Origin: a virus
Direction: 5' to 3' (one strand)
Length of the DNA stretch: 39,126 bases
Virus record (IMG/VR): IMGVR_UViG_3300027518_000001
Of this stretch, positions 2,641 to 26,006 are shown piece by piece (within the stretch, counting starts at the first letter, position 1; each line of letters starts with the position of its first letter). The translations under genes and the position numbers were made by a program. The notes below the pieces were generated by a model. It worked only from the letters and a program-made list of their open reading frames with translations, was not told where the DNA came from and searched no databases.

Positions 2641-3699
2641 TTATAACTCCGCACTTAGTCCGATGTATTGGTTTGAAGCATTTGTCGATTGAATGTTCAC
2701 TACCTCACCTTGAGTAAATACTCCAGAACCGTGAGTGTAAGCAACTTCGACCACAGAATTAGAAGCATTTGCTCCACCTGTTCCAGCGATTGCCCAAGTT
2801 CCACTTGTGTAGCGAACATCAGTCGATGCTCTGTTTGCAGCTATGTTTGCTTGCTCGATACTTGTTGGCATTGTTCTCATTGCACTTGGTAACATCAAAC
2901 CAAAACGAGCAATAGCAGTAGTTGATGCGTAACCGCTACTACTCATCAAATTAAAGTTTGCAGCATCTCTTTGAAAACGCCAGTAATACCTCTGGCAAGC
3001 GGCTAATTCACCCTGGATAGTGCTACCAGCACGACTAAATGGTGTTGCTACATTGCCTACTTCTAATTGGAATCCAGTAACTTCAAGATAATCTGCTGCT
3101 CCTGCTGTACCGCTTGGAGTCCAATCAAAGTGAACGGCTAATTCTGTAGCGGTAGCACCAACAGCAAAAGTAAATGTAAAGCGTTGCCAAGTGGTTGTTA
3201 GTGTTGAATGAATTGGTGAGTTAAGTAGTTGGCTTTGACCTGTATATCCGTTAATAAGATTTTGGTCTGTTCCTGTTCCAGAAAAAACTTGAGCAGCAAT
3301 AGTTCCTGAGAAATTAGCACCCTTGCGAGCATAGAAAGAATAGGTTACAGTTTTACCAGCATAAGGGATTGAATTTGCTGTTTCAATATTCTGTGTAAAA
3401 TAAAGCGGAGCAGTATTAGTGCTACCAGAATCACGAGAATAACGCGCACAATATTGAATGTTAGGCAAGTTTGTAGTATCACCAGTTGCCTGACGAGATG
3501 TTACTGTTGATGAACCTGTATTGCGAACATACCAACGGTCTACAGAATAACCAACACCATTAACGCCGTAAGCAACAGAAGTTCCACGCTGCCAAATGTC
3601 CATACTGCCATTAATGATTGCGTTCTTACCAGCAGTTACACCTGCTACTGCACCACCAGAGTTTTGCTGAGTAGTGGCTGTGTTATAGGCTCTGGTCAT
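2641..3699 (-). CDS. Receptor-binding (tail-fibre tip) protein, paralog 2
   Basis: 352 aa with the same motif set (GKNAIINGSMDIWQRGT ... ELAACQRYY ... GLSAEL). Confidence 0.75.
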   Translation of the reverse strand: MTRAYNTATTQQNSGGAVAGVTAGKNAIINGSMDIWQRGTSVAYGVNGVGYSVDRWYVRNTGSSTVTSRQATGDTTNLPNIQYCARYSRDSGSTNTAPLYFTQNIETANSIPYAGKTVTYSFYARKGANFSGTIAAQVFSGTGTDQNLINGYTGQSQLLNSPIHSTLTTTWQRFTFTFAVGATATELAVHFDWTPSGTAGAADYLEVTGFQLEVGNVATPFSRAGSTIQGELAACQRYYWRFQRDAANFNLMSSSGYASTTAIARFGLMLPSAMRTMPTSIEQANIAANRASTDVRYTSGTWAIAGTGGANASNSVVEVAYTHGSGVFTQGEVVNIQSTNASNQYIGLSAEL

Positions 3700-3822: not shown

Positions 3823-6711
3823 TTATAACTCCGCACTTAATCCGAGATAACCAGAAGATGAATTGTTTACTTCAACAAAATAAGGACGATATTGAGTCAA
3901 ACTACCTGATGTAGTGAACTTTAGAACAGGTCGAGATGTTGAGGTTCTGTTCGCACTGTCAAAAGTAACAGATGACACAGTTGAAGCATTTTGTGTATCT
4001 ACAACACGAAGTGTTGAGAAATCAATTGCCGAAGGAGTTACTCTCATTGCAACTGGTAAAGATATTTGAGAGATTACATAGGTTGAATCTGAAGCCATAC
4101 CAAAACTTATCTGTTCGTAAACTCCACCAGTACCAAAGCGCACATAGTAACGCTGACACGCAGCCAACTCAGATGCTGGGTTGCCAGTAGCAGTTTGGAA
4201 GGCTGTTACTGTAGAACCTGCCTCGGCTTGCATACCCCAGAACTGGAATGTATTAGACTGCAATCCTGGATTACCACTTCGCGTTGCAAGTGTTGAACCA
4301 TTAGATAACCAGAAATTCAAAACTATATGCCCGCCACCACTAGGAGAACTTAATTGTCCTGATGTCCAAGTTAATGCAGGAACTACAAAGGTAAATGAAT
4401 ATCTTGCCCAAGATGTTGAAATAGTTCTAGTTGTTGAGTTAGTCCCAAAAACTGCAGAGCCAGAACCACCAGAGTTTTGAATAACTTCTAACCCTACTTT
4501 TGGTGTTCCACTTGTAGCCTTAGCCCAAAATGATACTGTAATTGTTTGCCCAGCAAAAGTTCTTGGGTCTTCAATTCTTTGTTCAAATGTGATATAACTT
4601 CCAGTATCACTACCTGATGTAGTAGCAACTTGATAAAAGTATGCACTTTCATAGCCAGATACAGGAGCAGTACCAGGTGTAAATGTTTGCTGCGTTACAG
4701 TTGCAGCAGCACCAGTACCACCAAAATCTAATTTCCATCTATCGGCTGTATAACCTGCTGTGCTAAATGTAGTACCACGCTGCCAGATGCTAAAGTCACC
4801 ATTAAGAATCTTATTCTTACCAGCAGAAAAATCACCAGTGTTTTGAACAAACCTAGCATTAGCCTCTGCCTGTGTATAAGTATTAGAAACACTAAATGCA
4901 GTAAAGGCTAAGACTGTAACAATGTCACTAGCAGTCAATGCTGCCATACCAGTAATGCTTGTACCATTAGATGCTGTGTAATCAGAGCCTCGTACCTGTA
5001 GCACACCATTGATATAGACCTGCTCTTTACCTACTATGTAGGACAGAGTTAAACTGTTGTCATCAGGACCAGATACGCTGGTTGCGCCTGCTGATACTGT
5101 GTACTTGTAGGCAATAATGTCAGCACTAGATGAGATTTCTCCCCAAGCAGTACCTGACCAGACGAACATCTTATTAGATACAGTGTTCCAATATAGAGCA
5201 CCAGTAAGTAGCGCATTGCCATCATTGTCTACTGATGGTGGAGATGACTTGGCACCTAGGTACCTATCGTCAAACTCATCATAAGATGTAGCGGCACTAG
5301 TTGCTGAAGTCAAGGCAGATGATGCTGAAGTAGATGCACTCGCTGCAGAAGTAGCAGCAGCGGTCTGGCTAGTTAGAGCAGAAGATGCTGATGTGCTAGC
5401 AGACGCAGCAGATGTTGCTGCAGCGGTTGCTGAGTTGCTTGCCGATGTTGCAGAAGTTGCAGCAGCACTTGCGCTAGCAGCAACTACAGATTCACTTGCA
5501 GCAGCATTGATAGCACTTGTATTAGCAGCAGTCGCAGAGGCTGCAGCAGAGGTAGCACTAGTAGCAGCAGCGGTTGCTGATGCGGCTGCACTGGCTGCGC
5601 TTGTGGCTGCAGCAGTTACGCTTGCATTCATAGTAGAAGCAGATGTGGCTGCAGAGTTTGCAGATGTTAAAGCAGATGATGCGCTAGTAGCAGCACTTGT
5701 CGCGCTAGTCGCTGCAGCAGTAGCAGAGTTTGCAGCAGATGTAGCATAGCCAGCAATCGTTGCTACTGAGTTGGCAGCAGTTGTTGCACTGTTCGCTGCA
5801 CTAGTTGCACTAGTTGCCGCTGCTGTGGCAGATGCTGCTGCTGAGGTAGCACTTGTCGCTGCTGCTGTAGCAGAACTTGCAGAAGCACTTGCAGATGTTG
5901 CAGATGCTATTGCTGATGTTTCTGAACTTCCAGCAGATGTAGCAGCAGATGCTGCACTAGTTGCTGCACTTGCAGCCGATGTGGCTGCTGCAGTTGCTGA
6001 GCCCAAAATGCTGTCTACATAATCCTTAGGAGTTGCAGATGAAGCAGACATCCCTGCAGAAGATAGACCAGTGATAACTGGTGAGCCTGAGATAGTCGGG
6101 CTAGTTAAAGTCTTGTTAGTAAGAGTCTGTACTGCCGTTGCAATAACCACTGTGCCTGTTGTGTTAGGCATTGTGATTGTATTGTCCTGTGTAGGGTCGA
6201 CCACTGTAAGGGTGGTCTCAAATGCATCAGGTGTTGCACCCTCAAAGACAATGCTTGCATCTACACCTGCACCAGAAATGCTTGGGTTGGTGATTGTAGG
6301 GCTTGTAAGGGTCTTATTAGTCAGTGTCTGGGTGTCGATAGTTCCGACAACAGAAGAGGAGTTTGAGATGCCGTGAACCCCTGTAGAAGCCTCAATATGG
6401 GTATTGGCTTCGCGGTAGTCACGACCGATTGCCATGTGGCGCGTAACTGCACCAGCCGAGTGGGCTTGGGCGGAAGAGCCATCAATACCACGGGTAATAG
6501 TAAAGGTATTAGTAGATACCGCCGTGGCATCTACAATTTCTTCAAGGGCTGTATCTGGGTCAATAACCAAAGTAAAGGTTGTGCCACCTGAAATGGTTGC
6601 ACCACCAAGAAGCGCAGGCCCAGACTGAACAGTAATTGTTGTTGCACCAGCAGTAACCGCGCTAGTCAGCGTAGATTGCTGAGAGCGTGAGGAGTAGTTT
6701 CTAGTTGTCAT
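3823..6711 (-). CDS. Tail fibre. N-terminal anchor with TLTNKTLTSP repeats, a roughly 34-heptad Ala/Ser rod, and a C-terminal receptor-binding domain (paralog 1).
   Basis: 962 aa. Two QTLTNKTLTSPTI repeats, a long SAxxAAT heptad tract, and a C-terminal roughly 340 aa homologous to the two downstream proteins. Confidence 0.85.
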   Translation of the reverse strand: MTTRNYSSRSQQSTLTSAVTAGATTITVQSGPALLGGATISGGTTFTLVIDPDTALEEIVDATAVSTNTFTITRGIDGSSAQAHSAGAVTRHMAIGRDYREANTHIEASTGVHGISNSSSVVGTIDTQTLTNKTLTSPTITNPSISGAGVDASIVFEGATPDAFETTLTVVDPTQDNTITMPNTTGTVVIATAVQTLTNKTLTSPTISGSPVITGLSSAGMSASSATPKDYVDSILGSATAAATSAASAATSAASAATSAGSSETSAIASATSASASASSATAAATSATSAAASATAAATSATSAANSATTAANSVATIAGYATSAANSATAAATSATSAATSASSALTSANSAATSASTMNASVTAAATSAASAAASATAAATSATSAAASATAANTSAINAAASESVVAASASAAATSATSASNSATAAATSAASASTSASSALTSQTAAATSAASASTSASSALTSATSAATSYDEFDDRYLGAKSSPPSVDNDGNALLTGALYWNTVSNKMFVWSGTAWGEISSSADIIAYKYTVSAGATSVSGPDDNSLTLSYIVGKEQVYINGVLQVRGSDYTASNGTSITGMAALTASDIVTVLAFTAFSVSNTYTQAEANARFVQNTGDFSAGKNKILNGDFSIWQRGTTFSTAGYTADRWKLDFGGTGAAATVTQQTFTPGTAPVSGYESAYFYQVATTSGSDTGSYITFEQRIEDPRTFAGQTITVSFWAKATSGTPKVGLEVIQNSGGSGSAVFGTNSTTRTISTSWARYSFTFVVPALTWTSGQLSSPSGGGHIVLNFWLSNGSTLATRSGNPGLQSNTFQFWGMQAEAGSTVTAFQTATGNPASELAACQRYYVRFGTGGVYEQISFGMASDSTYVISQISLPVAMRVTPSAIDFSTLRVVDTQNASTVSSVTFDSANRTSTSRPVLKFTTSGSLTQYRPYFVEVNNSSSGYLGLSAEL
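5285..6003 (-). repeat. Coding tandem repeat: about 34 imperfect 21-nt units (heptad S-A-x-x-A-A-T)
   Basis: Protein reads SATAAAT SAASAAT SAASAAT ... SASSALT SATSAAT. The DNA is GCN/TCN-rich, which produces spurious Ala/Val ORFs on the plus strand. Confidence 0.85.
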
Positions 6712-12969: not shown

Positions 12970-14684
12970 TAGCCCATGAATCCAAACGACTTAAGTATGG
13001 TGTCAGCAAAATTAGCAGCAGTATTGCGTGCTTCTTCTGTTTGCCGCCATAGTGGGTTTGCTTGCATCTGTCTATTAAACTCTGCGGTACTCATTAGTCC
13101 GCCATCTCTAGTAAGTGCCATCTGTACATCTTTGTCATTAAAAGCATCAGTAATTGGAATACCTAGTTTTTTTGACTTAATTAATGCATACTGGTCAGCA
13201 ATGTCTTTAACATTTCCACCATTAGTAATGTGGTCTTTAAGATTGCCATACATAGTTAGTGCATTAAGACGTAAACGTTCTGTTTGTTTTTGTATAGCAT
13301 CTTTTTCTGTACCACCAGCAATAACAAAAGCAAGTGCTTCTCCTGCTGTTAGTGGTTGTCCATACTCTGCTCCAGCCTTTTGCAAGGCTGCTATCTGTAT
13401 AGCAACTTGGCTGCCTTTAGCAGACTTAAGTAATGCTCCTGCGTCTGTACCCTCAAGGGCTTTAATAACAATAGCGTTCTGAGAGTTTTGGCGTTCTGCT
13501 GCAGTAAAGGCTGCGCCTTTACGAGTAGACTTAGTTATCTTTCCAGTTGCATCACGGGTTGTAACAACCTCAACAGCAGACTTTTTTTCACGCTCATTAA
13601 TATCTTTAAAGTATGCTTCTTTTTCTTCTTGTGTTGCTGGTCTACCTATAGCATCAATAAGGTAATCATTAATTTCAGTATAAGCATCGCCTGCTGTAGT
13701 AAGAATTATATCTGTATCTTTAAAAGTTCCAGCCTTACTTTCTGGCAATCCTGTTCCAGCCCCGCCTTTAGCAGAGTTAAACCAAGAAAAAAAAGGAACT
13801 TCTTTAACGCCTTCAATTTGAATTTTAGTTGCAGCATCAAATGTATATTTAGCAATTGCATTATCAAGACCAAACAACCAGTCGTCTTGTTCTAGTTGTT
13901 TTTTTGTAATCCAGGTACGATTAACTAACTCTCTTTTTAAAGCATCTAGTTGTCCAGGCTGTGAATAGTTCTTAAGAAAAGCCTCACGTGCTGAAATAAT
14001 ACTTTTATACTGGTTAATAGTTGTTGAGCCATCAGCGTTTTTTGTATCAACAAAATAGATACGCTCTCCATTAAGAATAACATTACCAGAAGATTCAATT
14101 GCATAACCTTTAAGTCTGTCTTCTGCTACATCTATAACACCGCCATCTTCAAGAGGTGCTGGTGTTTCTACAGTTTTATTTTCAGGTCGAATTATTCCCT
14201 TGGGTGCAGGCGGTAATGGTTTAACCTTCGCACCTGCATTTTTAGCAGCAGTCTGAGCATCATATGCAGCCTGTACCGCTGCTTCATACTGAGCCTGACC
14301 ACGTGAAGGAATAAGTGCTTCTGCTTTTTTAAGGTCAGTAAGTGATTTCTCATATGCATCAAGTGCACCTTGCGCATCCTTTTGTTTTTCACTTGTTCCT
14401 TGAGCGCGGTTAAGTTCTAAACGTGCAGCGTTTTTTGCATCTTGTGCTCGCTTATATGCAAGAGAAGCATCATCATATTGTTTCTTGATAGCATTAAAAT
14501 CTTTTATATTAAAGTTACGTATACTGCCTGGTTTTGCATCATTCTTTTCTTTACTATCTAAAGCAAGTAAATACTTTTGTTCTAAACCACCGCGCCCCGC
14601 AGTACCATTAAGGATGTCATAGGTACGGCGTGCTTCTTCTGAAGCATCAAAGAAGGCTTTTTCTAAACCTTTAATGTCAGCCAT
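12969..14684 (-). CDS. Putative internal virion or ejection protein (571 aa)
   Basis: Long ORF with a coiled-coil N-terminal third. Its start overlaps the stop of the 1703-aa gene. Confidence 0.4.
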   Translation of the reverse strand: MADIKGLEKAFFDASEEARRTYDILNGTAGRGGLEQKYLLALDSKEKNDAKPGSIRNFNIKDFNAIKKQYDDASLAYKRAQDAKNAARLELNRAQGTSEKQKDAQGALDAYEKSLTDLKKAEALIPSRGQAQYEAAVQAAYDAQTAAKNAGAKVKPLPPAPKGIIRPENKTVETPAPLEDGGVIDVAEDRLKGYAIESSGNVILNGERIYFVDTKNADGSTTINQYKSIISAREAFLKNYSQPGQLDALKRELVNRTWITKKQLEQDDWLFGLDNAIAKYTFDAATKIQIEGVKEVPFFSWFNSAKGGAGTGLPESKAGTFKDTDIILTTAGDAYTEINDYLIDAIGRPATQEEKEAYFKDINEREKKSAVEVVTTRDATGKITKSTRKGAAFTAAERQNSQNAIVIKALEGTDAGALLKSAKGSQVAIQIAALQKAGAEYGQPLTAGEALAFVIAGGTEKDAIQKQTERLRLNALTMYGNLKDHITNGGNVKDIADQYALIKSKKLGIPITDAFNDKDVQMALTRDGGLMSTAEFNRQMQANPLWRQTEEARNTAANFADTILKSFGFMG

Positions 14685-17600
14685 TACTTTAACTCCTTAT
14701 ATACATAGTATGATTCGCGTGAATAAAATCCAAGTATTGATTTAAAGATTGCACGGTTGGCTTCTGTTACATATAGGTCGCCTACCATTAATTCGTTTAG
14801 ATTAGCCTCTATTTGTTCTTTTCTTTCTCGCTTAAGTTGTGCAATGTTTTCAACATTCTTTAACTCTGGGTCAGTAGAGAAAGCAATAAATTCTCGTACC
14901 ATCTTAATTGCCATCATTAACTTTTGGCGTGTGGCTGGTCTAACATCAGTATTAGGGTTTGAAATTAATTGCTCAAGACTATCAAGCATTACAGATTCAT
15001 TACCAATTTCATTACCAGAACCAATAAGTTCTGAATTAAGCAATGGGTTGTTAGCCTTTAATGCAGCACGTTGCTGCTCTGCTGCTTTAATAACATTGGC
15101 TCGTAGTTCTGGGTCTGACAGATTGCTAAGAATATCTTTTTGCTGACGAGCAATGTCATAATACTTCTGCTTATCCTCTGCTACCTGTATATCTGTGTAG
15201 TAGTCTTCAAGGCTTTTGCTTTCAATAAGGCCTGCTGCCTTAATCCAGTTATAAGTACCAGCATTAAAGTCACCAATCTGTGGTGCAAAAATGTAGGCAA
15301 CCTCACCATAGGTCTTAATTAAGTCAGCGTTTTTAATGCCCCAGTTTTTTAACTTATCTGTGTTCTTAATAAGAACGCTAGTCTGCTTATCCTCACGGGC
15401 AACTGTGTAGATAAGTTTGCCTGGATTCTTACCAATGTATGTAGCAAGTGCTACCTCGTATGGGTCCGAAATGTCTCCATTATTAACAGCAGTTATGCCA
15501 TTAAGAATATCAAAGAACTCTGAGCGCAAAGTAGTAATACCAGTGTCTTTAATATAGTCAGGGATTCCTACAGACTCCATAGTTGTAGGTGCAACTGGTG
15601 ATAACAAACCTAGGAAGTGGCGCATAAATAATACATTATGTGCTGAGATACGAATGTTCTTTAGGTATTCAGACTTTTCTTCATCTGTAGCATTTGCTGT
15701 AATACCTATTCCGTTGGCTGCATTGTAGGCAATAGCCTGCTGTGCAGCGGTTACTTCTTGTCTAGACTTTTCATCAAATCCCAACATAGCCCAGACACGC
15801 TGTAAAGACGAAGGAACAACAGCACGGAATATATCAACATTGTCACCAATGTTACCTAATGCAAAAGTATCAATGCTTTCACCTAGTTGCTGTGAGTATG
15901 GCTGTATTGCACCACCAACAAATGGAATTTTTCCTGGAACTACACCAAGAATATTCTTTACAGCAATAACTCCTAGCCCTGCAATAGGGCCAGACAAAGT
16001 AGGAAGACCAGCATCTTGTGAAAATGATGGGCTAACCATTCTTAGTTTAAATGTAAACTCATTAAACAATGGCTGGCTATATCCAGTATTACCTGTTAGC
16101 GCACGAAACGCACCATCTGTAGCCTTATAGATAATGTTATCCATAGGCATTACTACATACGGCTCACCTTCGGCATCGTTAAAAATAGCGCCACTTGATT
16201 CAAGTCCTACGTTAACTAAACGCAAACGATACAAGGTACGTGGTGCTACATCCTTTAAACGATAGATACGGCGATAAAAATCCTCAGTTGCTCTATAGTA
16301 ACGACCAACGGTACGAATGCTAAATGAAAAGTTAGAACGTATCTTTGGGTTATCAGCAAACTTTAGAATAGTATCTGCTGCTTCACGCACCGCTAATTCA
16401 GTAAAACGCTTTTCTGCTATAGCCTTATACTTCTCAGTTACTAAATCAATCTGCTTTTGAGTAGCACCAGCAAAAGGACCCATCTCATTTGCTACCTGTT
16501 GACGAACAAACTCTTTTTCAATACCAGCATACTTTCTGCGCAACTGCGCATATGTAACCATAACTGCTGGTTGACGGAATAAACCAGTTACTTGTTGGTC
16601 CATCCAGTCCATCATAGTATTTCCGTAGCGTCTAAATACAGACTCTACATCAAAGTCACCAAAGGCTATTTCAGTATTGATAGGTCCGCTAATACGGAAT
16701 CCTTGGCTAGCATCTTGAAACTCATCTAAAGGAATACGTGCAACCGCTGCGTTCCAAGTAGGAGTGCGACCAGATTCTGCACTCATCTTAACTAGTTGCC
16801 CGTAACTATTCTTAACTACATCTAATAATCCCTGATTAAACTTGTTAGCATCACCATGGAATGTTTCGTACATATCAGTAAACATACGGAATAACTGACC
16901 ACGGGCAATTTGCTCATCATCTAGTCCACGACCACGTGCTTGAACTGTGTAGGCTGTGCGTTCTAAAAATGCACCAACAGATAGATTGTCTTGAATCTGC
17001 CAAGTATTAGTTAACGGTTCAAATTTAAAACCAATTTTTTCCATACCAGCATCAAGTGCTAGTTCCATCATTTCTTTACCAGTGCGTGGGTCTACCTCGC
17101 CTGGCTTTAATGCATTGTATCTAAAAAATATTTCTGCTGGATTAAGCGTAACTTCATCGGTTAGTTTGGCCTTGTTACCAGCCATCATCTTGAACCATTT
17201 TTCAAAGTGCGCTAATGCAACTTCGCGTTCTGTTAGCATAGCCGTATCAATAGTACGGGTTCCTTTACCCATCTTAATACCTAATGCATCAAAAGCCATA
17301 TCAAGCATAGATGGTGTAATAACTGATGCAACAATCTCCTCGCCATAGCGACCAGAGATACCACTGCTAGCAACAAGAGAAGCAGCCATTGAGTTAAGTG
17401 CATCAGGTGAATGTACAAAGGCTTGCATTAAATAACCAGCAGTTTCAGGGTCAACATAACGACCATACATTTGTGAAACAGCAGCAGATATTGCTTGACG
17501 TTTTTCTAAACTTGTTAAAAGAACAACATCAACTTCTAATTCATCTGCTTTGTTTTGTAAAATTGTTTGTCTATCTAAAATTGACAGTGCTTCTTCGTGT

Positions 17601-19795
17601 GAGTATCGTGGTTGTTTACCCATACGCATAGGTAAATCTGTGCGTGGCGCAAACTTTAATGTTTTCTGAATACTACGACGAATAGGACCACTAGCAGATT
17701 TAGAACCTGTAGCAGCGCGGGACATATTTCCTAGTCTTAATCCTTCTAGCGATGCAAATTTGCGCATATCTTTAGTAGGTGCAGACAATAAATACATAGT
17801 TGCTTCATCAATAGCAGAACGAACACCTAAGCGTGGGAACAAGGTTAAAATAGACCATGCATCAACTAGTCTTTTTGAAAAATTACCCTGTGTTGCTCCA
17901 CCAATTGCAGTAATAATGTTTTTCTTAGACTTAATTTCCCATACAGTTGACCCGATTGTGTCATAAGGTAGTGGACCAATAGCCCATGTAGTCTGATAAG
18001 GCTGCAATGGACCTTCAGTATTAACAAAAAATCCTGATTCAGATTCACGAACAGTATTTGCTGGTGCAAACTTAACATGGTCTGGATTAATTGCTAGGTC
18101 TCGCTTAGTAGCAAAGCCCGCTTTATCACCATACTTGTCTTGTAGTGTTTTAAGAATTAAATCTTCACCCTTAACACTGCCACCTAGTCCCATTGAGTAC
18201 ATAGTTGCAGCATCTAAGTTACGCAAAATAACTACTTGCTCATCAGCAGTTGATTCTAAAAAGCGAACAGTTAACGCTTGAGCCATATCTTTTGGCAAAA
18301 TCTGACGAGCACGGGCTGTAAAGTTAGAAGCAGTATCAATAGCATTAACGCCAACTCGTACTTCTAGTCCTTGTGGCGAACGTGCCGCTAAACGACCAAT
18401 TTTTTTCCAACCTTTAATCTCTTCATTAGCCTTTAATACTACAGACATATCAGAGTTAGGGTTAACTAAACGCTGTAGTGAATCTTCTGCATTAAGAAAT
18501 GCAGCACTAATTGGGTCAAGAGCAGCATCTCTTTCAGCAGCATTACGAGACATGTTATTAAAAACTCTGTCAAGTGAACGTATTAGTGCATCTGAAAATA
18601 AACGAGTTTGACGTGCTACTACTACGCCATTGCGCATGTAAGTTATACCATCAACTCGTCCTGCTAACAATAGATTTAGATTGCCAGCATTTTCAAAGTA
18701 TGCTTGTGCTGATGCAGCATCAAATACTTCTCCGTCAACTAAAGCCTTAATTGCGCTTTGGTCATTATACCCAGGAAAGTTTTTTGCAATTTCATCTAGT
18801 GCAATTGACTTTGCACCTGGAGTTCCGCTTGAGTCTTTTACCTTTTTAAGCGCAGGACCTAGTCCATCTTGCCAGAATGAATAAACTAACGGATTCTTAA
18901 ATGTATCTCCAACAGCCTTTTCTACTGAAACACCATTGTTAATTGCTTCAGTAAGCGAGTTAGCAATACGCTCACCTCTAGTTACACCCTTACTTAGTCC
19001 ACCTGTCATCCAGGTAAGTGGGTCTACAGCAATTTGATAAATAAAATCTATAACACCAGATACGTTTTTTGTTTTACTGCTTACACCACTTGATGGTGGC
19101 TTGCGGTCAAGCATACGGGCAATGTCTCGTCCTGGAGAAATCTGTGCGTACTTTACGCCATCTAATACTTCTTGAAAAGCCTCTGGTTCATCGTATGCTC
19201 TTTTAATTGAGTTAAGAAGATTAGCGTCTACTTTACCAAAGTCTTGAACAATTTCGCCAGGAGTTTTACCTGCAAGTAATCCTTTAGCAACCATAACATC
19301 AAACTCACCAAAGTAACTGGTCGCTTCCGCCAAAGCCTTGTCATCATATTGATTCTTTCCGTCCCATGCATCTGTCCATGTTTTCATTGAAAACAAATCT
19401 TCGCCCTGTGCAACCTGTCGTGCAATCTTATAAGGCTGATTAATTAAGCGGTTATACTGCCCACCTAGTTTAAATAAACCAATTAATGGTGATGCAACTA
19501 TTGTTCCAATAGTTTTAGCAACACCAAATAAACGGTCTGACACATCAGGTGCATCCTGCATATAGTCAGCATCTTTAAACATAAACTTTAGTTGGTCTTG
19601 AAATTGAGGCTCTAAACGGTTATATTCTTTACGAGCCATTTCTGTACCAAGTTTAACTAGTTCACGATGCTTTTTAATCGTGTAACTCATTTGTTCTATT
19701 TGGTTTTTTTCTACGCCAGTTAGGTTTGCGGTTTTTGCAGCAGCATAAATATTAGGTGATACCTCAGCAACAATCGGTTTAATGTACTGGGCCAT
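14684..19795 (-). CDS. Giant virion-associated protein (1703 aa), function unknown
   Basis: Uninterrupted 5.1-kb ORF in the head module. I recognised no polymerase, lysozyme or peptidase motif. Confidence 0.8.
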   Translation of the reverse strand: MAQYIKPIVAEVSPNIYAAAKTANLTGVEKNQIEQMSYTIKKHRELVKLGTEMARKEYNRLEPQFQDQLKFMFKDADYMQDAPDVSDRLFGVAKTIGTIVASPLIGLFKLGGQYNRLINQPYKIARQVAQGEDLFSMKTWTDAWDGKNQYDDKALAEATSYFGEFDVMVAKGLLAGKTPGEIVQDFGKVDANLLNSIKRAYDEPEAFQEVLDGVKYAQISPGRDIARMLDRKPPSSGVSSKTKNVSGVIDFIYQIAVDPLTWMTGGLSKGVTRGERIANSLTEAINNGVSVEKAVGDTFKNPLVYSFWQDGLGPALKKVKDSSGTPGAKSIALDEIAKNFPGYNDQSAIKALVDGEVFDAASAQAYFENAGNLNLLLAGRVDGITYMRNGVVVARQTRLFSDALIRSLDRVFNNMSRNAAERDAALDPISAAFLNAEDSLQRLVNPNSDMSVVLKANEEIKGWKKIGRLAARSPQGLEVRVGVNAIDTASNFTARARQILPKDMAQALTVRFLESTADEQVVILRNLDAATMYSMGLGGSVKGEDLILKTLQDKYGDKAGFATKRDLAINPDHVKFAPANTVRESESGFFVNTEGPLQPYQTTWAIGPLPYDTIGSTVWEIKSKKNIITAIGGATQGNFSKRLVDAWSILTLFPRLGVRSAIDEATMYLLSAPTKDMRKFASLEGLRLGNMSRAATGSKSASGPIRRSIQKTLKFAPRTDLPMRMGKQPRYSHEEALSILDRQTILQNKADELEVDVVLLTSLEKRQAISAAVSQMYGRYVDPETAGYLMQAFVHSPDALNSMAASLVASSGISGRYGEEIVASVITPSMLDMAFDALGIKMGKGTRTIDTAMLTEREVALAHFEKWFKMMAGNKAKLTDEVTLNPAEIFFRYNALKPGEVDPRTGKEMMELALDAGMEKIGFKFEPLTNTWQIQDNLSVGAFLERTAYTVQARGRGLDDEQIARGQLFRMFTDMYETFHGDANKFNQGLLDVVKNSYGQLVKMSAESGRTPTWNAAVARIPLDEFQDASQGFRISGPINTEIAFGDFDVESVFRRYGNTMMDWMDQQVTGLFRQPAVMVTYAQLRRKYAGIEKEFVRQQVANEMGPFAGATQKQIDLVTEKYKAIAEKRFTELAVREAADTILKFADNPKIRSNFSFSIRTVGRYYRATEDFYRRIYRLKDVAPRTLYRLRLVNVGLESSGAIFNDAEGEPYVVMPMDNIIYKATDGAFRALTGNTGYSQPLFNEFTFKLRMVSPSFSQDAGLPTLSGPIAGLGVIAVKNILGVVPGKIPFVGGAIQPYSQQLGESIDTFALGNIGDNVDIFRAVVPSSLQRVWAMLGFDEKSRQEVTAAQQAIAYNAANGIGITANATDEEKSEYLKNIRISAHNVLFMRHFLGLLSPVAPTTMESVGIPDYIKDTGITTLRSEFFDILNGITAVNNGDISDPYEVALATYIGKNPGKLIYTVAREDKQTSVLIKNTDKLKNWGIKNADLIKTYGEVAYIFAPQIGDFNAGTYNWIKAAGLIESKSLEDYYTDIQVAEDKQKYYDIARQQKDILSNLSDPELRANVIKAAEQQRAALKANNPLLNSELIGSGNEIGNESVMLDSLEQLISNPNTDVRPATRQKLMMAIKMVREFIAFSTDPELKNVENIAQLKRERKEQIEANLNELMVGDLYVTEANRAIFKSILGFYSRESYYVYKELK

Positions 19796-22823: not shown

Positions 22824-24710
22824 CTATCCGTATTGATGATTCCACATTTCAGATGCGGCATCATCTAGATTGATTGATGTACGTTTATGTTGTTGCGCTC
22901 TAGTAGCCCAACGATTGTTAGCGTACCTAGCGATATTGCTATTTTGCTGCATGAACTCACGGGCACGGATAACCGCAAACCACAAAGCCATAACAGTATC
23001 TGTCTTACCTCTGGTGTCAGGCTTCCAAGTAATTAACTGTTGGACCAATGCCTTCATACCTTCTGAGTTTTCAGTACTAGGTAATTCTATAATGTTGTTC
23101 TTTTGGAACTTACCTTCGCGACTTGTGCCAAAGAGTGTTGACATAGATGCCACACCGAAGTTTGTGTCCCATTTGTTCTTGCCTGTAAAGTGAGAATTAA
23201 GCCGTACGCCGTGTGAAGAGAGCCATGTTCGTAGTTCTTCATCAAGGGAGTAGGCTTTTTGGTGAGCGTTGATTTCAACGCGGAACTCTTGCGGTCTGTA
23301 CCGAAGCGTAAAATCTTCAATGGCTTGCCTAATCTTTTGTGGCGTAGGGTCTGGCATGTTCAAACACTCTAGAACATAAATCTTTCCATCAGTCCTGTTA
23401 TAGGTGATAGCCACAAATGCAGCGTTACCCGCCATAGCGGGGTCAAAGCCCACGATGGTGTAGCCCTCAACTTGGTTCGGGTGTCCCGTTGCACCTGGCT
23501 TTAATGGACCACGCTTGCGCATACCATTGATAGAACCTTGCACCAGTTCAGGTGGAAAGATAGAGTCTTCGGTTACATCTTCTTGTTGATAAACAAGCGC
23601 CCATGTTGCTGGGGTTACTTCGCTTCTACGCTTGAAAAGCGTTTCGCCATCCCACTTAGGGTATAACCCTTCTTCGTTAGGTGGGGTGTCTTCATCCCCG
23701 TCCCAGGGTGTATCACTTGCAGGCCAGAGAGTTGTCCAGTCTTCTGGCTTATCGCTATAGTCAAGAACTGCTGGCATACCCATGTATGTGAAAGGTGACT
23801 TGCCACCAGACCAATGCTTAGGGTCGCGGAGTTCTTTATAAAAATCAGATGGCGCAATACGGGTACCTACCACCAGTAACTTACCGTTCTTGCCCAAACG
23901 GGTAATAACTTCCTTTTGCAGCCAGTTAATTTGCTTTTCATGCTCGTGAGCGTTAGAGGTAGTTATACAGTCATCTAGGATAATCAGGTCGGCACGGGCA
24001 CCGTAAATCTGACCACCCATACCCAGTGCCTGAATCGTTGGGTCTTTTTCACTTGAGTTTCTCGCATCACTCCCAAGATAGACCGTGTCAACTCGCCAAG
24101 TATCTGAGTCTTCTTTCCAGCCCCCTTCTGGTCCAAAAGTTGTTTGTAACTTTAGCCAGCGCGGGTGGGATAATCTCTGCTTGATTGCGTACACGAACTC
24201 GCGTGCTTTAACAAGGGTCTTCGAGACCACAATAATGCGGACGTTCGGATTGAGAGCGATGCGATAAGTTGCGTAGTTAACCGTAATGACGGTTGATTTG
24301 GCGTGCTCAGGGGGAACGTTTAAAAGAAGGCGGTTCCGATTGCCTGGCTCGTAAATCATATTGGGGTGCAGCCACGAAGGCTCGCGGCCCTCTAATAGGT
24401 CAATCCAATCCATATGGTGTGGAAAAACCCGCTGGTCCAAAAACATTTCAGAAAACTGAGGAAAAGTAATATCTTCACGGGCTACGCCCATGGCTTTTAA
24501 TGAACGCTCTTTAGCGTTTTCCTTTGCCTCCACAAGGGCGGTAGCAAAGGCTGGGTCTCTTAAACACCAGATACGAACAGTGTCTGGCTTTTTGCCATTT
24601 TGTTCCATAGCCTTATGCACAGACATACCTTCAGAAACCAGCGCCAAAACTTTGGCTTTAGCCTCTGCCGCCATAGCGGTACGAGGATTATTAGTCTTCT
24701 GAAAAGTCAC
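22824..24710 (-). CDS. terL: Terminase large subunit with an N-terminal TerS-like HTH extension
   Basis: NVPPEHAKST (Walker A-like), DLIILDD (Walker B), and a C-terminal nuclease-type region (IVGFDPA). The N-terminal roughly 70 aa, KVLALVSEGMSVHKAMEQNGKKPDTVRIWCLRDPAFATALVEAK, look like a small-terminase HTH. GTG start at 24710. Confidence 0.85.
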   Translation of the reverse strand: MTFQKTNNPRTAMAAEAKAKVLALVSEGMSVHKAMEQNGKKPDTVRIWCLRDPAFATALVEAKENAKERSLKAMGVAREDITFPQFSEMFLDQRVFPHHMDWIDLLEGREPSWLHPNMIYEPGNRNRLLLNVPPEHAKSTVITVNYATYRIALNPNVRIIVVSKTLVKAREFVYAIKQRLSHPRWLKLQTTFGPEGGWKEDSDTWRVDTVYLGSDARNSSEKDPTIQALGMGGQIYGARADLIILDDCITTSNAHEHEKQINWLQKEVITRLGKNGKLLVVGTRIAPSDFYKELRDPKHWSGGKSPFTYMGMPAVLDYSDKPEDWTTLWPASDTPWDGDEDTPPNEEGLYPKWDGETLFKRRSEVTPATWALVYQQEDVTEDSIFPPELVQGSINGMRKRGPLKPGATGHPNQVEGYTIVGFDPAMAGNAAFVAITYNRTDGKIYVLECLNMPDPTPQKIRQAIEDFTLRYRPQEFRVEINAHQKAYSLDEELRTWLSSHGVRLNSHFTGKNKWDTNFGVASMSTLFGTSREGKFQKNNIIELPSTENSEGMKALVQQLITWKPDTRGKTDTVMALWFAVIRAREFMQQNSNIARYANNRWATRAQQHKRTSINLDDAASEMWNHQYG

Positions 24711-25130
24711 GTAACTGTCCCATCTGCATATAGTACAGACTAGTTAGTAACGGATAGTAGATACAGTCTGTAACGCAAGTTCCTAAAGAACTTGCTTAGG
24801 TAGTAAAAGAAATAGTCTCTATATAGTATTAATCCGTTCAAACAGCCATTCCGAACGGTTCAAAGGCAAAAATCTTTTTACTTAATTAAAACAGTTAAAT
24901 AACAGCCTAAACAGGGCATAGGGGACTGTACGGGAAAATCTTTATTGGAGATACAGTATATCTTACAGCCGTAGTTTAATCACTCTAGGGTCAGAACTAG
25001 AGTACAGACAGACAGATACAGGTTGACCTGTACTGTACAGACTGAGTGTAGACAGAGACTAGTCTGAGGCTCGATAGACAAGACTACCTCGCCCCTGTTT
25101 TATTAAACTGAAATAGTTACAGCCCTGGCG
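24711..25130. promoter_or_regulatory. Divergent control region, candidate origin. TACAG/CTGTA repeat cluster, ACAGCC repeats, palindromes and an AT-rich core.
   Basis: No ORF of 60 aa or more on either strand. 12 TACAG/CTGTA in 24734-25122. GTACAGAC three times (24733, 25002, 25035). (A/T)ACAGCC four times on the plus strand. TACAGGT-TG-ACCTGTA at 25017-25032. GCAAGTTC-n5-GAACTTGC at 24775-24795. About 14% GC at 24867-24902. Confidence 0.5.
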
Positions 25131-25616
25131 ATGGCTATGTCTTTAACCCTCGCAAATGCAGGACGTAGACCAATGGTCGTAATCTGTCCTATGATTTGGA
25201 GACAAAGACAACGCGCCTGCGTTGTTGCCTTTGTCTATCAAATCAAAGGCAGACCAGACGGCGATACAATTCCTGAGAATTGATATCCCCGTCTTTTACT
25301 CATGACCCCTTGGATTTTATCTCCATCAGCAAAATAGCAAGCCTGCCTCACCATGATTCCCGTCACGCCCTTCTGGCATGACAGTAATCACAGTTCAGCC
25401 TGTGCTTGCCATTTCAGTCGCGTTGTTCTACGACTGCCTGGCTGGCGTGCTGATGACGGCTCTCGATTTTGAGCATCAGAGGCTTGTCAAGCCAAACCTC
25501 TGATAAACGCGCTCAAAATAGGCTGGCAGGCTAAAGCCTGCGTAGCCATTGCTCGAGCCTGAGATGGATGGGCGTTGCCCTTAAAATTTGGGGGTGGCTA
25601 ACGAAAGGAAAGTAAA
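25131..25616 (+). other. ORF-poor, GC-richer, hairpin-dense segment. Candidate structured RNA(s) and/or leader of the early operon.
   Basis: Stems at 25200-25236 (15 bp plus a bulge), 25256-25294, 25415-25436, 25467-25518 (16 bp with a 6-nt bulge), 25521-25547 and 25570-25580. About 50-55% GC in the lines I counted. Confidence 0.35.
25256..25297 (+). terminator. Rho-independent-terminator-like hairpin inside the ORF-free region
   Basis: AGACGG-c-GATA-CAATTC [ctga] GAATTG-a-TATC-c-CCGTCT, followed by TTTT. Confidence 0.4.
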
Positions 25617-26006
25617 ATGTCTGATGAACTGACTGTCTCCAACCCATGCTACCAGTGCATGATTCAGATGGAACTATGTATGGACTGCCAAGACCTACGC
25701 GACTCACGGGCGACTAACATCGCCCATGAGATAGTAGATGAGGCAAACCTCATCTACCCTGCGCAGTGGCACAGTATAACTGAACCAAGTGGACACGAAT
25801 GGGTCAGCCCTACCACAAGGGTAGAGCCGTATTTCGTTTACGTTACCCAAACATGGGAAGATACCCGTGACGAGTTCCTCGAACCTATCACCAACCTATC
25901 CGATAGGTTCTTTGAACTGGTTGTGGACTTAGGTCCACATGAGATGGTCTGTCAAGACTGTCGAATGGTGTGTAACAAGCACGCTGTATGTCCAAGTTGT
26001 AACTAA
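25617..26006 (+). CDS. Cys-rich early protein (129 aa) with two zinc-ribbon-like clusters
   Basis: CYQC-x6-CMDC near the N-terminus and CQDC-x3-C-x5-CPSC at the C-terminus. GAAAGGAAAG SD. Confidence 0.7.
   Translation: MSDELTVSNPCYQCMIQMELCMDCQDLRDSRATNIAHEIVDEANLIYPAQWHSITEPSGHEWVSPTTRVEPYFVYVTQTWEDTRDEFLEPITNLSDRFFELVVDLGPHEMVCQDCRMVCNKHAVCPSCN

Follow-up and report, generated by a model that had tools for sequence, protein, structure and literature searches.

A putative family of structured, exchangeable non-coding modules ahead of the early genes of a tailed phage

The intergenic region and its folded module

The stretch of DNA analysed here, hereafter the window, is the 39,126-nucleotide (nt) IMG/VR record IMGVR_UViG_3300027518_000001, which looks like a whole tailed-phage genome of ~39 kb. 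The genes for structure (large terminase at 22824–24710, portal, major head protein and tail fibres) form an arm on the minus strand, those for early functions and replication an arm on the plus strand from 25617 (exonuclease, DnaB-like helicase, primase-like proteins and a sigma-like factor), and a 906-nt non-coding region (24711–25616) separates the two divergent arms. Several genes point to an actinobacterial host, namely an L5/D29 gp49-like domain, a DUF4192 domain and, in a relative with 62% terminase identity, a WhiB gene; the closest cultured terminases (~47% identity) belong to Streptomyces phages, and the closest GenBank records by terminase are OX376640/1 (62% identity). The subject of this study is the right part of the intergenic region, a module, or cassette, of ~465 nt at 25137–25602 (conserved core 25168–25598), which lies immediately ahead of the first early gene, whose Shine-Dalgarno (SD) sequence GAAAGGAAAG (25604–25613) and start codon (ATG at 25617) together span 25604–25619 on the plus strand. 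We conclude that this module very probably represents an undescribed family of structured non-coding elements that pass horizontally between phages and work as a folded single strand, in all likelihood of RNA.

The original prediction, made from the letters of the window, had seen in 25131–25616 a GC-rich, hairpin-dense segment poor in open reading frames (ORFs) and proposed that it holds structured RNA ahead of the early-gene SD sequence, which was indeed located where it had been placed. No ORF of 60 or more amino acids (aa) lies within 25131–25616 on either strand, the longest ones having 50, 42, 41, 39 and 33 aa, and a 58-aa minus-strand ORF (25531–25707) overlaps only its right edge. The GC enrichment is real (49.8% in 25137–25602 versus 42.7% in the window), but the contrast is smaller than had been written, and the genes flanking the intergenic region have 45–47% GC. 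Folding against shuffled controls and covariation across related phages had been named as checks, and both came out in favour of a structured element. Compared with dinucleotide shuffles, 25131–25616 folded with z-scores of −6.4 on the plus and −10.5 on the minus strand, and 25090–25525 with −7.8 and −11.6, respectively.

Covariation was assessed on RNAalifold consensus structures of 20 distinct copies, and later of 30 copies. The plus-strand consensus of the 20 copies comprised 136 pairs, 15 of which had compensatory double changes, with 98.8% of cells being standard pairs, and the minus-strand consensus comprised 137 pairs, 14 with compensatory double changes and 99.2% of cells standard; structures slid by 1–3 columns yielded 0–4 double changes (0–2 for the plus-strand consensus), and none of 500 shuffles attained the observed values. 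The double changes were not confined to the first helix, H1, and occurred as well in helix H2, a central rod, the hairpin at 25415–25436, the long helix at 25466–25519 and the hairpin at 25521–25547. As the helices are kept by compensatory substitutions, the covariation shows that the module acts as a folded single strand, which bears out the predicted dependence on intramolecular base pairing.

The left part of the module is made of two helices. Helix H1 (25183–25253), ~27 bp with bulges, contains as its tip the stem originally paired at 25200–25236 and has eight pairs with compensatory changes, exemplified in the 30 copies by 25206–25230 (A-U in 16, G-C in 14) and 25210–25226 (A-U in 12, G-C in 18). 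In L003 and L006, which have the more frequent version of the H1 tip, this tip is closed on the minus strand by a GGGA tetraloop; pairing of an H1 arm with 25415–25426 was considered and rejected, as no covariation was found for it. Helix H2 (25256–25294) is present as predicted and, with the TTTT next to it at 25295–25298 (together 25256–25298), is terminator-like on the plus strand, where it had been predicted to close a separate short transcript near 25297. One of its 16 pairs is compensatory (25260–25290, G-C in 26 copies and A-U in four), and a C.A at 25262–25288 reads U.G on the minus strand in 18 of 20 copies. Almost every copy keeps the T run, though it gives only four U, and a terminator scan left H2 unlisted and listed the H1 tip on both strands instead. 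The segment 25180–25300 as a whole folded with z-scores of −10.2 (plus) and −10.4 (minus).

The largest helix, which had been overlooked, is a 33-bp rod at 25332–25414 that forms well on the minus strand only. The folding energy of 25330–25440 was −58.1 kcal/mol (z −9.9) on the minus strand versus −31.4 kcal/mol (z −3.0) on the plus strand; all five non-Watson-Crick positions of the rod (25336–25410, 25352–92, 25353–91, 25361–83 and 25366–78) are A.C on the plus and G.U on the minus strand, and position 25367–25377 is G-C in 12 copies and a minus-strand G.U in eight. Farther right, the stems that had been read by eye at 25415–25436, 25467–25518 and 25521–25547 all recur in the minimum-energy and consensus folds, the second of them re-placed to 25466–25519. 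The short hairpin CAGTCG/CGACTG (25415–25436) is in the consensus folds of both strands, its pair 25420–25431 being G-C in nine, A-U in five and G-U in four copies, while the long helix TTTTGAGCATCAGAGG.../...CCTCTGAT...GCTCAAAA (25466–25519; consensus helices 15 and 16) has two compensatory pairs (25479–25500 and 25485–25494) and z-scores of −3.5 (plus) and −4.7 (minus). A 43-nt block at 25512–25554, invariant in the 20 aligned copies, includes a perfect 7+7 palindrome and holds the hairpin 25521–25547 (GGCTG-GCAGGC-TAAA-GCCTGC-GT-AGCC), with UAUUUUGAG next on the minus strand; G25525.U25543 of this hairpin pairs on the plus strand only and is G-C in L103 and L104. The last predicted stem, GGGC-gtt-GCCC at 25570–25580, exists but is weak and competes with a better SD-proximal hairpin, GUUGCCCUUAA-AAU-UUGGGGGUGGC at 25574–25598, which forms on the plus strand only, via U.G pairs, two of which (25581–91 and 25582–90) are U-A in 4–5 copies.

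Borders, exchange and sister modules

A terminase-based scan of IMG/VR yielded 494 related loci, and 80 of them were fetched. The module of the window was present in five of the 80, the rest carrying 274 to ~670 nt of different sequence at the site, and exact-word scans of IMG/VR and JGI metagenomes raised the total to 34 distinct copies, all on viral or metagenome contigs; copies for which both flanking sequences were recovered are 82–98% identical to the window. In the aligned copies the module keeps its orientation and is followed at once by the SD sequence and start codon of the first early gene, even where the first early protein is only 34–49% identical. Single-base indels were found at about nine places among the 20 aligned copies, and in some copies the 50-aa ORF (25131–25283) lacks its ATG or is interrupted by a gap of 7 nt; on these grounds the comparison of copies shows that the module encodes no protein.

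BLAST breakpoints delimit the module sharply, homology with relatives that carry other modules stopping exactly at 25136 and returning at 25603, the SD sequence. The left border is formed by an AT-rich, conserved control region (24711–25136, GC 39.7%) outside the module. This left 426 nt of the intergenic region is 95–98% identical in close relatives with other modules, and its part 24715–24860, often extending to ~25000–25040, still has 70–83% identity in relatives with 81–86% terminase identity. At the junction, the word GCCCTGGCGATGGCT (25121–25135) is followed by AACCCTC (25145–25151); GCCCTGGCGATGGCT and AACCCTC(A/G)C are common to all module types, standing at the starts of the L007, L009, L005, L021 and L026 modules, and may indicate where transcripts of all types end, where a protein binds or where recombination joins the modules.

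Two complementary patterns speak of exchange. Phages that are 95–98% identical in the left flank carry unrelated modules, folded and just as rich in GC, at the same site, and lineages with 77–80% terminase identity and 34–49% first-early-protein identity carry a module that is still 87–92% identical in DNA, next to a right flank and adjacent gene of ~70–75% DNA identity. Since near-identical flanks hold unrelated modules and diverged phages hold a similar one, these alignments show that the module is exchanged horizontally as a unit. This cassette nature had been missed by the original prediction; the segment is not a fixed part of this phage's leader. Concerning its inner make-up, the L105, L106 and L121 contigs end at one place in the module (~25465–25495) and the 3′ domain of L117 differs from there; the module itself is made of at least two exchangeable parts.

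The sister modules found at the same site have 54–57% GC throughout, and the majority are more stably folded than their shuffles, with z-scores as low as −8.6. When eight module types were compared against mononucleotide shuffles, the minus strand was the more stable in all eight and had the lower z-score in seven. The module types are linked by short shared words and hairpin motifs only, and an nhmmer profile of the window-type module found no L007-type module. The sisters have covarying hairpins of their own (such as GCGCC-CAT/CGC/CAC...ATG/GCG/GTG-GCGC and AGCCC/AGCGC...GGGCT/GCGCT), and L007, L009, L005, L012, L021, L026 and L020 share one whose loop does not vary, reading CUAUUC(A/G) on the early-gene strand and GAAUA on the terminase strand, while its three stems covary (GCTCTGC, CCGCC and GTCTGCC). 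Palindromes of 16–18 nt with a TAAA centre and different arms also occur in the sisters (GCGTGGTAAACCACGC and GCGTGTCTAAAGCCACGC), with GCAGGCTAAAGCCTGC as the counterpart in the window, and every sister module ends with a small hairpin 5–15 nt ahead of the SD sequence. The L007 type has the same polarity as the window's module in weaker form, its body folding slightly better on the terminase-sense strand and its SD-proximal part on the early-sense strand.

In L009, L016, L005 and L020, an additional short ORF, Cys-rich and preceded by an SD sequence of its own, lies between the module and the usual first early gene; therefore, the site takes small accessory genes too. The first early gene of the window itself (25617–26006) encodes a Cys-rich protein of 129 aa with no match in Pfam, PHROG or PDB, and a homologue of it (34–49% identity) is still the first early gene in all module-carrying lineages.

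Strand preference and competing explanations

Several measures bear on which strand folds. The consensus energy of the 30 copies was −143 kcal/mol on the minus and −108 kcal/mol on the plus strand. In helices predicted on both strands, one-sided transitions left a G.U on the minus strand in 12 pairs and on the plus strand in two (nine and one, respectively, when the divergent L117 was left out), an asymmetry with a binomial p of 0.013 that was built by events in different sequences, while unpaired columns had no transition bias (41 versus 40); one-sided changes in the L007 type lean to the minus strand too (3 versus 0). Hairpin loops are 59% purine on the minus strand and 46% on the plus strand, the minus strand carrying the GGGA and GAAUA loops. 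As a control, the energy test was applied to the Pleft leader RNA of mycobacteriophage L5 and picked the mapped strand (z −3.7 versus −2.0; PMC5712189). These measures favour the minus strand for 25180–25520, above all for the rod 25332–25414, and only the SD-proximal ~80 nt look like a plus-strand structure: 25521–25598 fold better on the plus strand, and the energy of 25512–25616 was −38.0 kcal/mol on the plus versus −26.1 kcal/mol on the minus strand. The strand on which most of the module seems to fold is thus not the one that had been assumed but its complement, which reads toward the terminase/late operon.

We therefore tentatively favour, at somewhat less than an even chance, a two-part reading of the module. 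Its body (~25180–25520) would be a stable minus-strand RNA that has the polarity of the terminase/late operon and is antisense to the leader of the early genes, either as a separate antisense RNA or as the 5′ part of the late-operon leader, and its overlap with the early leader would tune early-gene expression or the early-to-late switch, whereas the SD-proximal hairpins would be part of the early mRNA. Frequent swapping of modules would then alter regulatory specificity. A bolder extension, which we regard as unlikely, is that the modules are interchangeable RNA specificity cassettes of ~350–450 nt each, antisense to the early leader, which would determine by whom early genes can be switched on or act as a decoy for a host factor or defence, and would be swapped between related phages of one environment under conflict-driven selection; if true, they would correspond, at the RNA level, to the immunity or anti-defence regions that other phages exchange.

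The main rival is a plain plus-strand leader, in which the early operon would have the whole module as a long 5′ untranslated region, its promoter lying in the AT-rich sequence that immediately precedes the module (~25100–25120). H1 and H2 would then form a stable 5′ domain, H2 with its UUUU would attenuate most transcripts to give an abundant ~180-nt RNA, and read-through would carry the downstream helices and the SD-proximal hairpin, as in the L5/D29 Pleft leader. We hold this to be possible but rather doubtful. It accords with the adjacency of the module to the SD sequence and ATG in constant orientation, with the conserved T run after H2, with the SD-proximal hairpins, which pair on the plus strand only, with the L5/D29 precedent, alike in position, size and lack of ORFs (PMC5712189), and with the L5/D29 gp49-like domain of this phage. 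Some of these signals, together with others, weigh against a minus-strand body. No TANNNT or −10-like box was seen near the SD sequence in the sister modules (judged by eye), and as some promoter must serve the early genes, the module is likely to be transcribed through on the plus strand; in several lineages, A/T-rich boxes that resemble a −10 element are found directly ahead of the modules (also by eye). No sigma-70-like minus-strand promoter was found right of the module, where the sequence varies between lineages. H2 followed by UUUU is a plus-strand signal, a hairpin followed by UUUCUCUC recurs on the plus strand in the L007 type, H1 and H2 fold equally well on either strand, and the substitution asymmetry is built on about a dozen events. 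What speaks for the minus-strand body over a plain leader is that the plus strand is the weaker folder overall, strongly so in 25330–25440, that one-sided substitutions give plus-strand A.C mismatches far oftener than G.U, and that the plus-strand loops are pyrimidine-rich; moreover, the better folder is the sense strand in L5 but the antisense strand here, and the promoter scan passed no promoter in the expected place.

That the module works as DNA, through hairpins in single-stranded DNA that would serve as a priming or single-strand initiation signal beside an origin, or through palindromic protein-binding sites, appears improbable. The AT-rich neighbouring region with four TACAGAC repeats, the DnaB-like helicase and primase-like protein encoded by the phage, the perfect 7+7 palindrome in the invariant block, and a strand bias and cassette exchange like those of plasmid single-strand origins would suit it, but helices of 27–33 bp with bulges and arms 40–70 nt apart are not operator-like, the tolerance of G.U rather than A.C is an RNA signature, and the CS-6 word of ssoA-type origins, TAGCG(A/T), is absent from both strands of 25131–25616. 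Still less credit is given to the view that the module has no function of its own and is what recombination has left behind in a hot spot close to the end of the genome, its hairpins being incidental and its identity a sign of recent transfer. Genome-end regions of actinobacteriophages are indeed indel-rich (PMC5712189) and the module has clearly been transferred between lineages; this view has to face, however, 14–15 compensatory pairs with ~99% of cells paired, z-scores below −6 and down to −11.6, unrelated module types at the site that are all GC-enriched and mostly folded as well, and loops conserved on covarying stems across module types. The chance that the module encodes one or more small proteins, such as the 50-aa ORF 25131–25283, is practically nil: ORFs of 33–50 aa are present, but the roughly nine indel sites, the 7-nt gap and the lost ATG refute it for conserved ORFs.

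Relation to known systems and significance

In line with the claim that the region belongs to no known RNA family, Rfam 15 gave no match at gathering scores in the whole window, and when the E-value was relaxed to 10 for 24600–25750, only sub-threshold noise from microRNA and small-RNA families was obtained (best 21.9 bits versus a 54-bit threshold). The claimed lack of transfer RNA and transfer-messenger RNA holds too, ARAGORN finding no such gene in the window. A blastn search of 24700–25700 had no match in GenBank phages, OX376640/1 carrying their own, different and only moderately folded intergenic sequence, and exact-word scans revealed no copy of the module in the genomes of 185,579 cellular species. 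The lone cellular 21-mer match is attributed to chance, because it lies inside a helicase/intein ORF of a Nitrosotalea metagenome-assembled genome and has no further similarity around it.

Several other identities were tried and rejected. Divergent promoters in 25520–25600 (plus strand CTGAGA-17-TAAAAT, minus strand TAGCCT) have no equivalents in the sisters and would leave the plus-type hairpins untranscribed, and a sigma-54-like reading of TGGCGATGGCT misfits the consensus. N4-like hairpin promoters served by a virion RNA polymerase were set aside, the 1703-aa ORF having no match and the helices being far larger than N4 promoters; this ORF lies on the minus strand of the structural arm (14684–19795), and the searches that returned nothing for it covered PHROGs, Pfam and PDB sequences. 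A packaging RNA like the phi29 pRNA was rejected as well, because phages with near-identical terminases swap modules.

Some further observations concern the control region and the phage group. The window has 12 TACAGAC words versus 5.6 expected, and four of the 12, one of them inverted, fall in a ~310-nt stretch of the control region (24734–25042), where they could be operator- or iteron-like sites. A hairpin of the control region, TTAATCCGTTC...GAACGGTT at 24829–24863, is among the few motifs kept out to the relatives with 62% terminase identity, a look-alike, AACCGTAGAGCAAACGGAGGTTAATCCGTT, being found in these GenBank relatives (L001 at ~4790–4830 and L002 at ~3010–3050). At 79,356 bp, L130 (IMGVR_UViG_3300042567_000108) has about twice the ~39.7 kb of this phage group and is probably a dimer assembly, not a larger phage.

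The closest functional analogue is the Pleft leader RNA of mycobacteriophages L5 and D29, to which the module is not homologous. In the cluster A phages L5, D29 and StarStuff, a non-coding region of ~500 nt separates gene 89 from Pleft (Dedrick et al. 2017, PMC5712189); its RNA is the most abundant early transcript and is processed to stable RNAs of 100–500 nt, and the region is toxic to the host when cloned, the function of the RNA being unknown (PMC5712189). Both elements comprise ~500 nt without a conserved ORF between a control region on the genome-end or terminase side and the first early gene, both belong to actinobacteriophages with divergent arms, both are indel-rich and variable between close relatives, and the L5 leader also folds better than shuffles (sense strand z −3.7). 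They differ in that the L5 RNA is mapped and sense to the early genes, while the better-folding strand of the present module is antisense; the module is also more strongly folded (z −6 to −12) and is exchanged between lineages as a whole cassette. Neither an nhmmer profile of 20 copies run against L5 50500–52297 (no match at E up to 10) nor blastn, which gave 9–12-nt words only, indicated homology.

Other resemblances are taken as leads only. The antisense and leader RNAs P22 sar, lambda OOP, P4 CI RNA and P1/P7 c4 are 70–200 nt long, have mapped promoters and act by pairing with a transcript. They are likewise small non-coding RNAs in or opposite early or immunity leaders whose specificity varies between related phages, but the present element has ~350–450 nt and no known promoter; neither an integrase nor a repressor is apparent in the phage, and the only target pairing found is the trivial antisense overlap. 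The RNase III sites in the early leader of T7 (R0.3 and others) are single hairpins on the sense strand; long imperfect helices, a leader of several hundred nucleotides before the first early gene and a podovirus setting recall the present case, and there is no homology. Like lambda nut (boxB) and HK022 put, hairpins with conserved loops and variable stems are found here in the leader of a long operon, the lead being the minus-strand GAAUA pentaloop of the sister modules, GNR(N)A-like and on covarying stems, which is absent from the module of the window; no boxA or N-like protein was identified, and no search aimed at either was made. The single-strand origins and single-strand initiation (ssi) sites of rolling-circle and IncQ plasmids (RSF1010) act as DNA, on replicons with a single-stranded stage. 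They too are strand-specific, highly folded non-coding cassettes (150–300 nt) swapped between replicons, and to our knowledge a tailed double-stranded DNA phage has no obligatory single-stranded stage.

What is unusual about the module is its size and degree of folding, the presence of several non-homologous families at one address, the exchange of whole cassettes between lineages and the apparent antisense polarity. Phages have few large structured non-coding RNAs, and a function has been assigned to hardly any of them, and not to the abundant and toxic Pleft leader of L5/D29. The module family described here is well delimited, with covariation support, tens of natural variants and non-homologous sister families at the same site, and these variants, sisters and the exchange pattern offer a comparative handle on the role of leader-region RNAs. 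If the minus-strand reading is true, the body of the module would be a cis-antisense RNA of large size, opposed to the early operon in a phage that looks lytic, and may become a testable model for RNA control of the early-to-late switch or for phage–phage competition.

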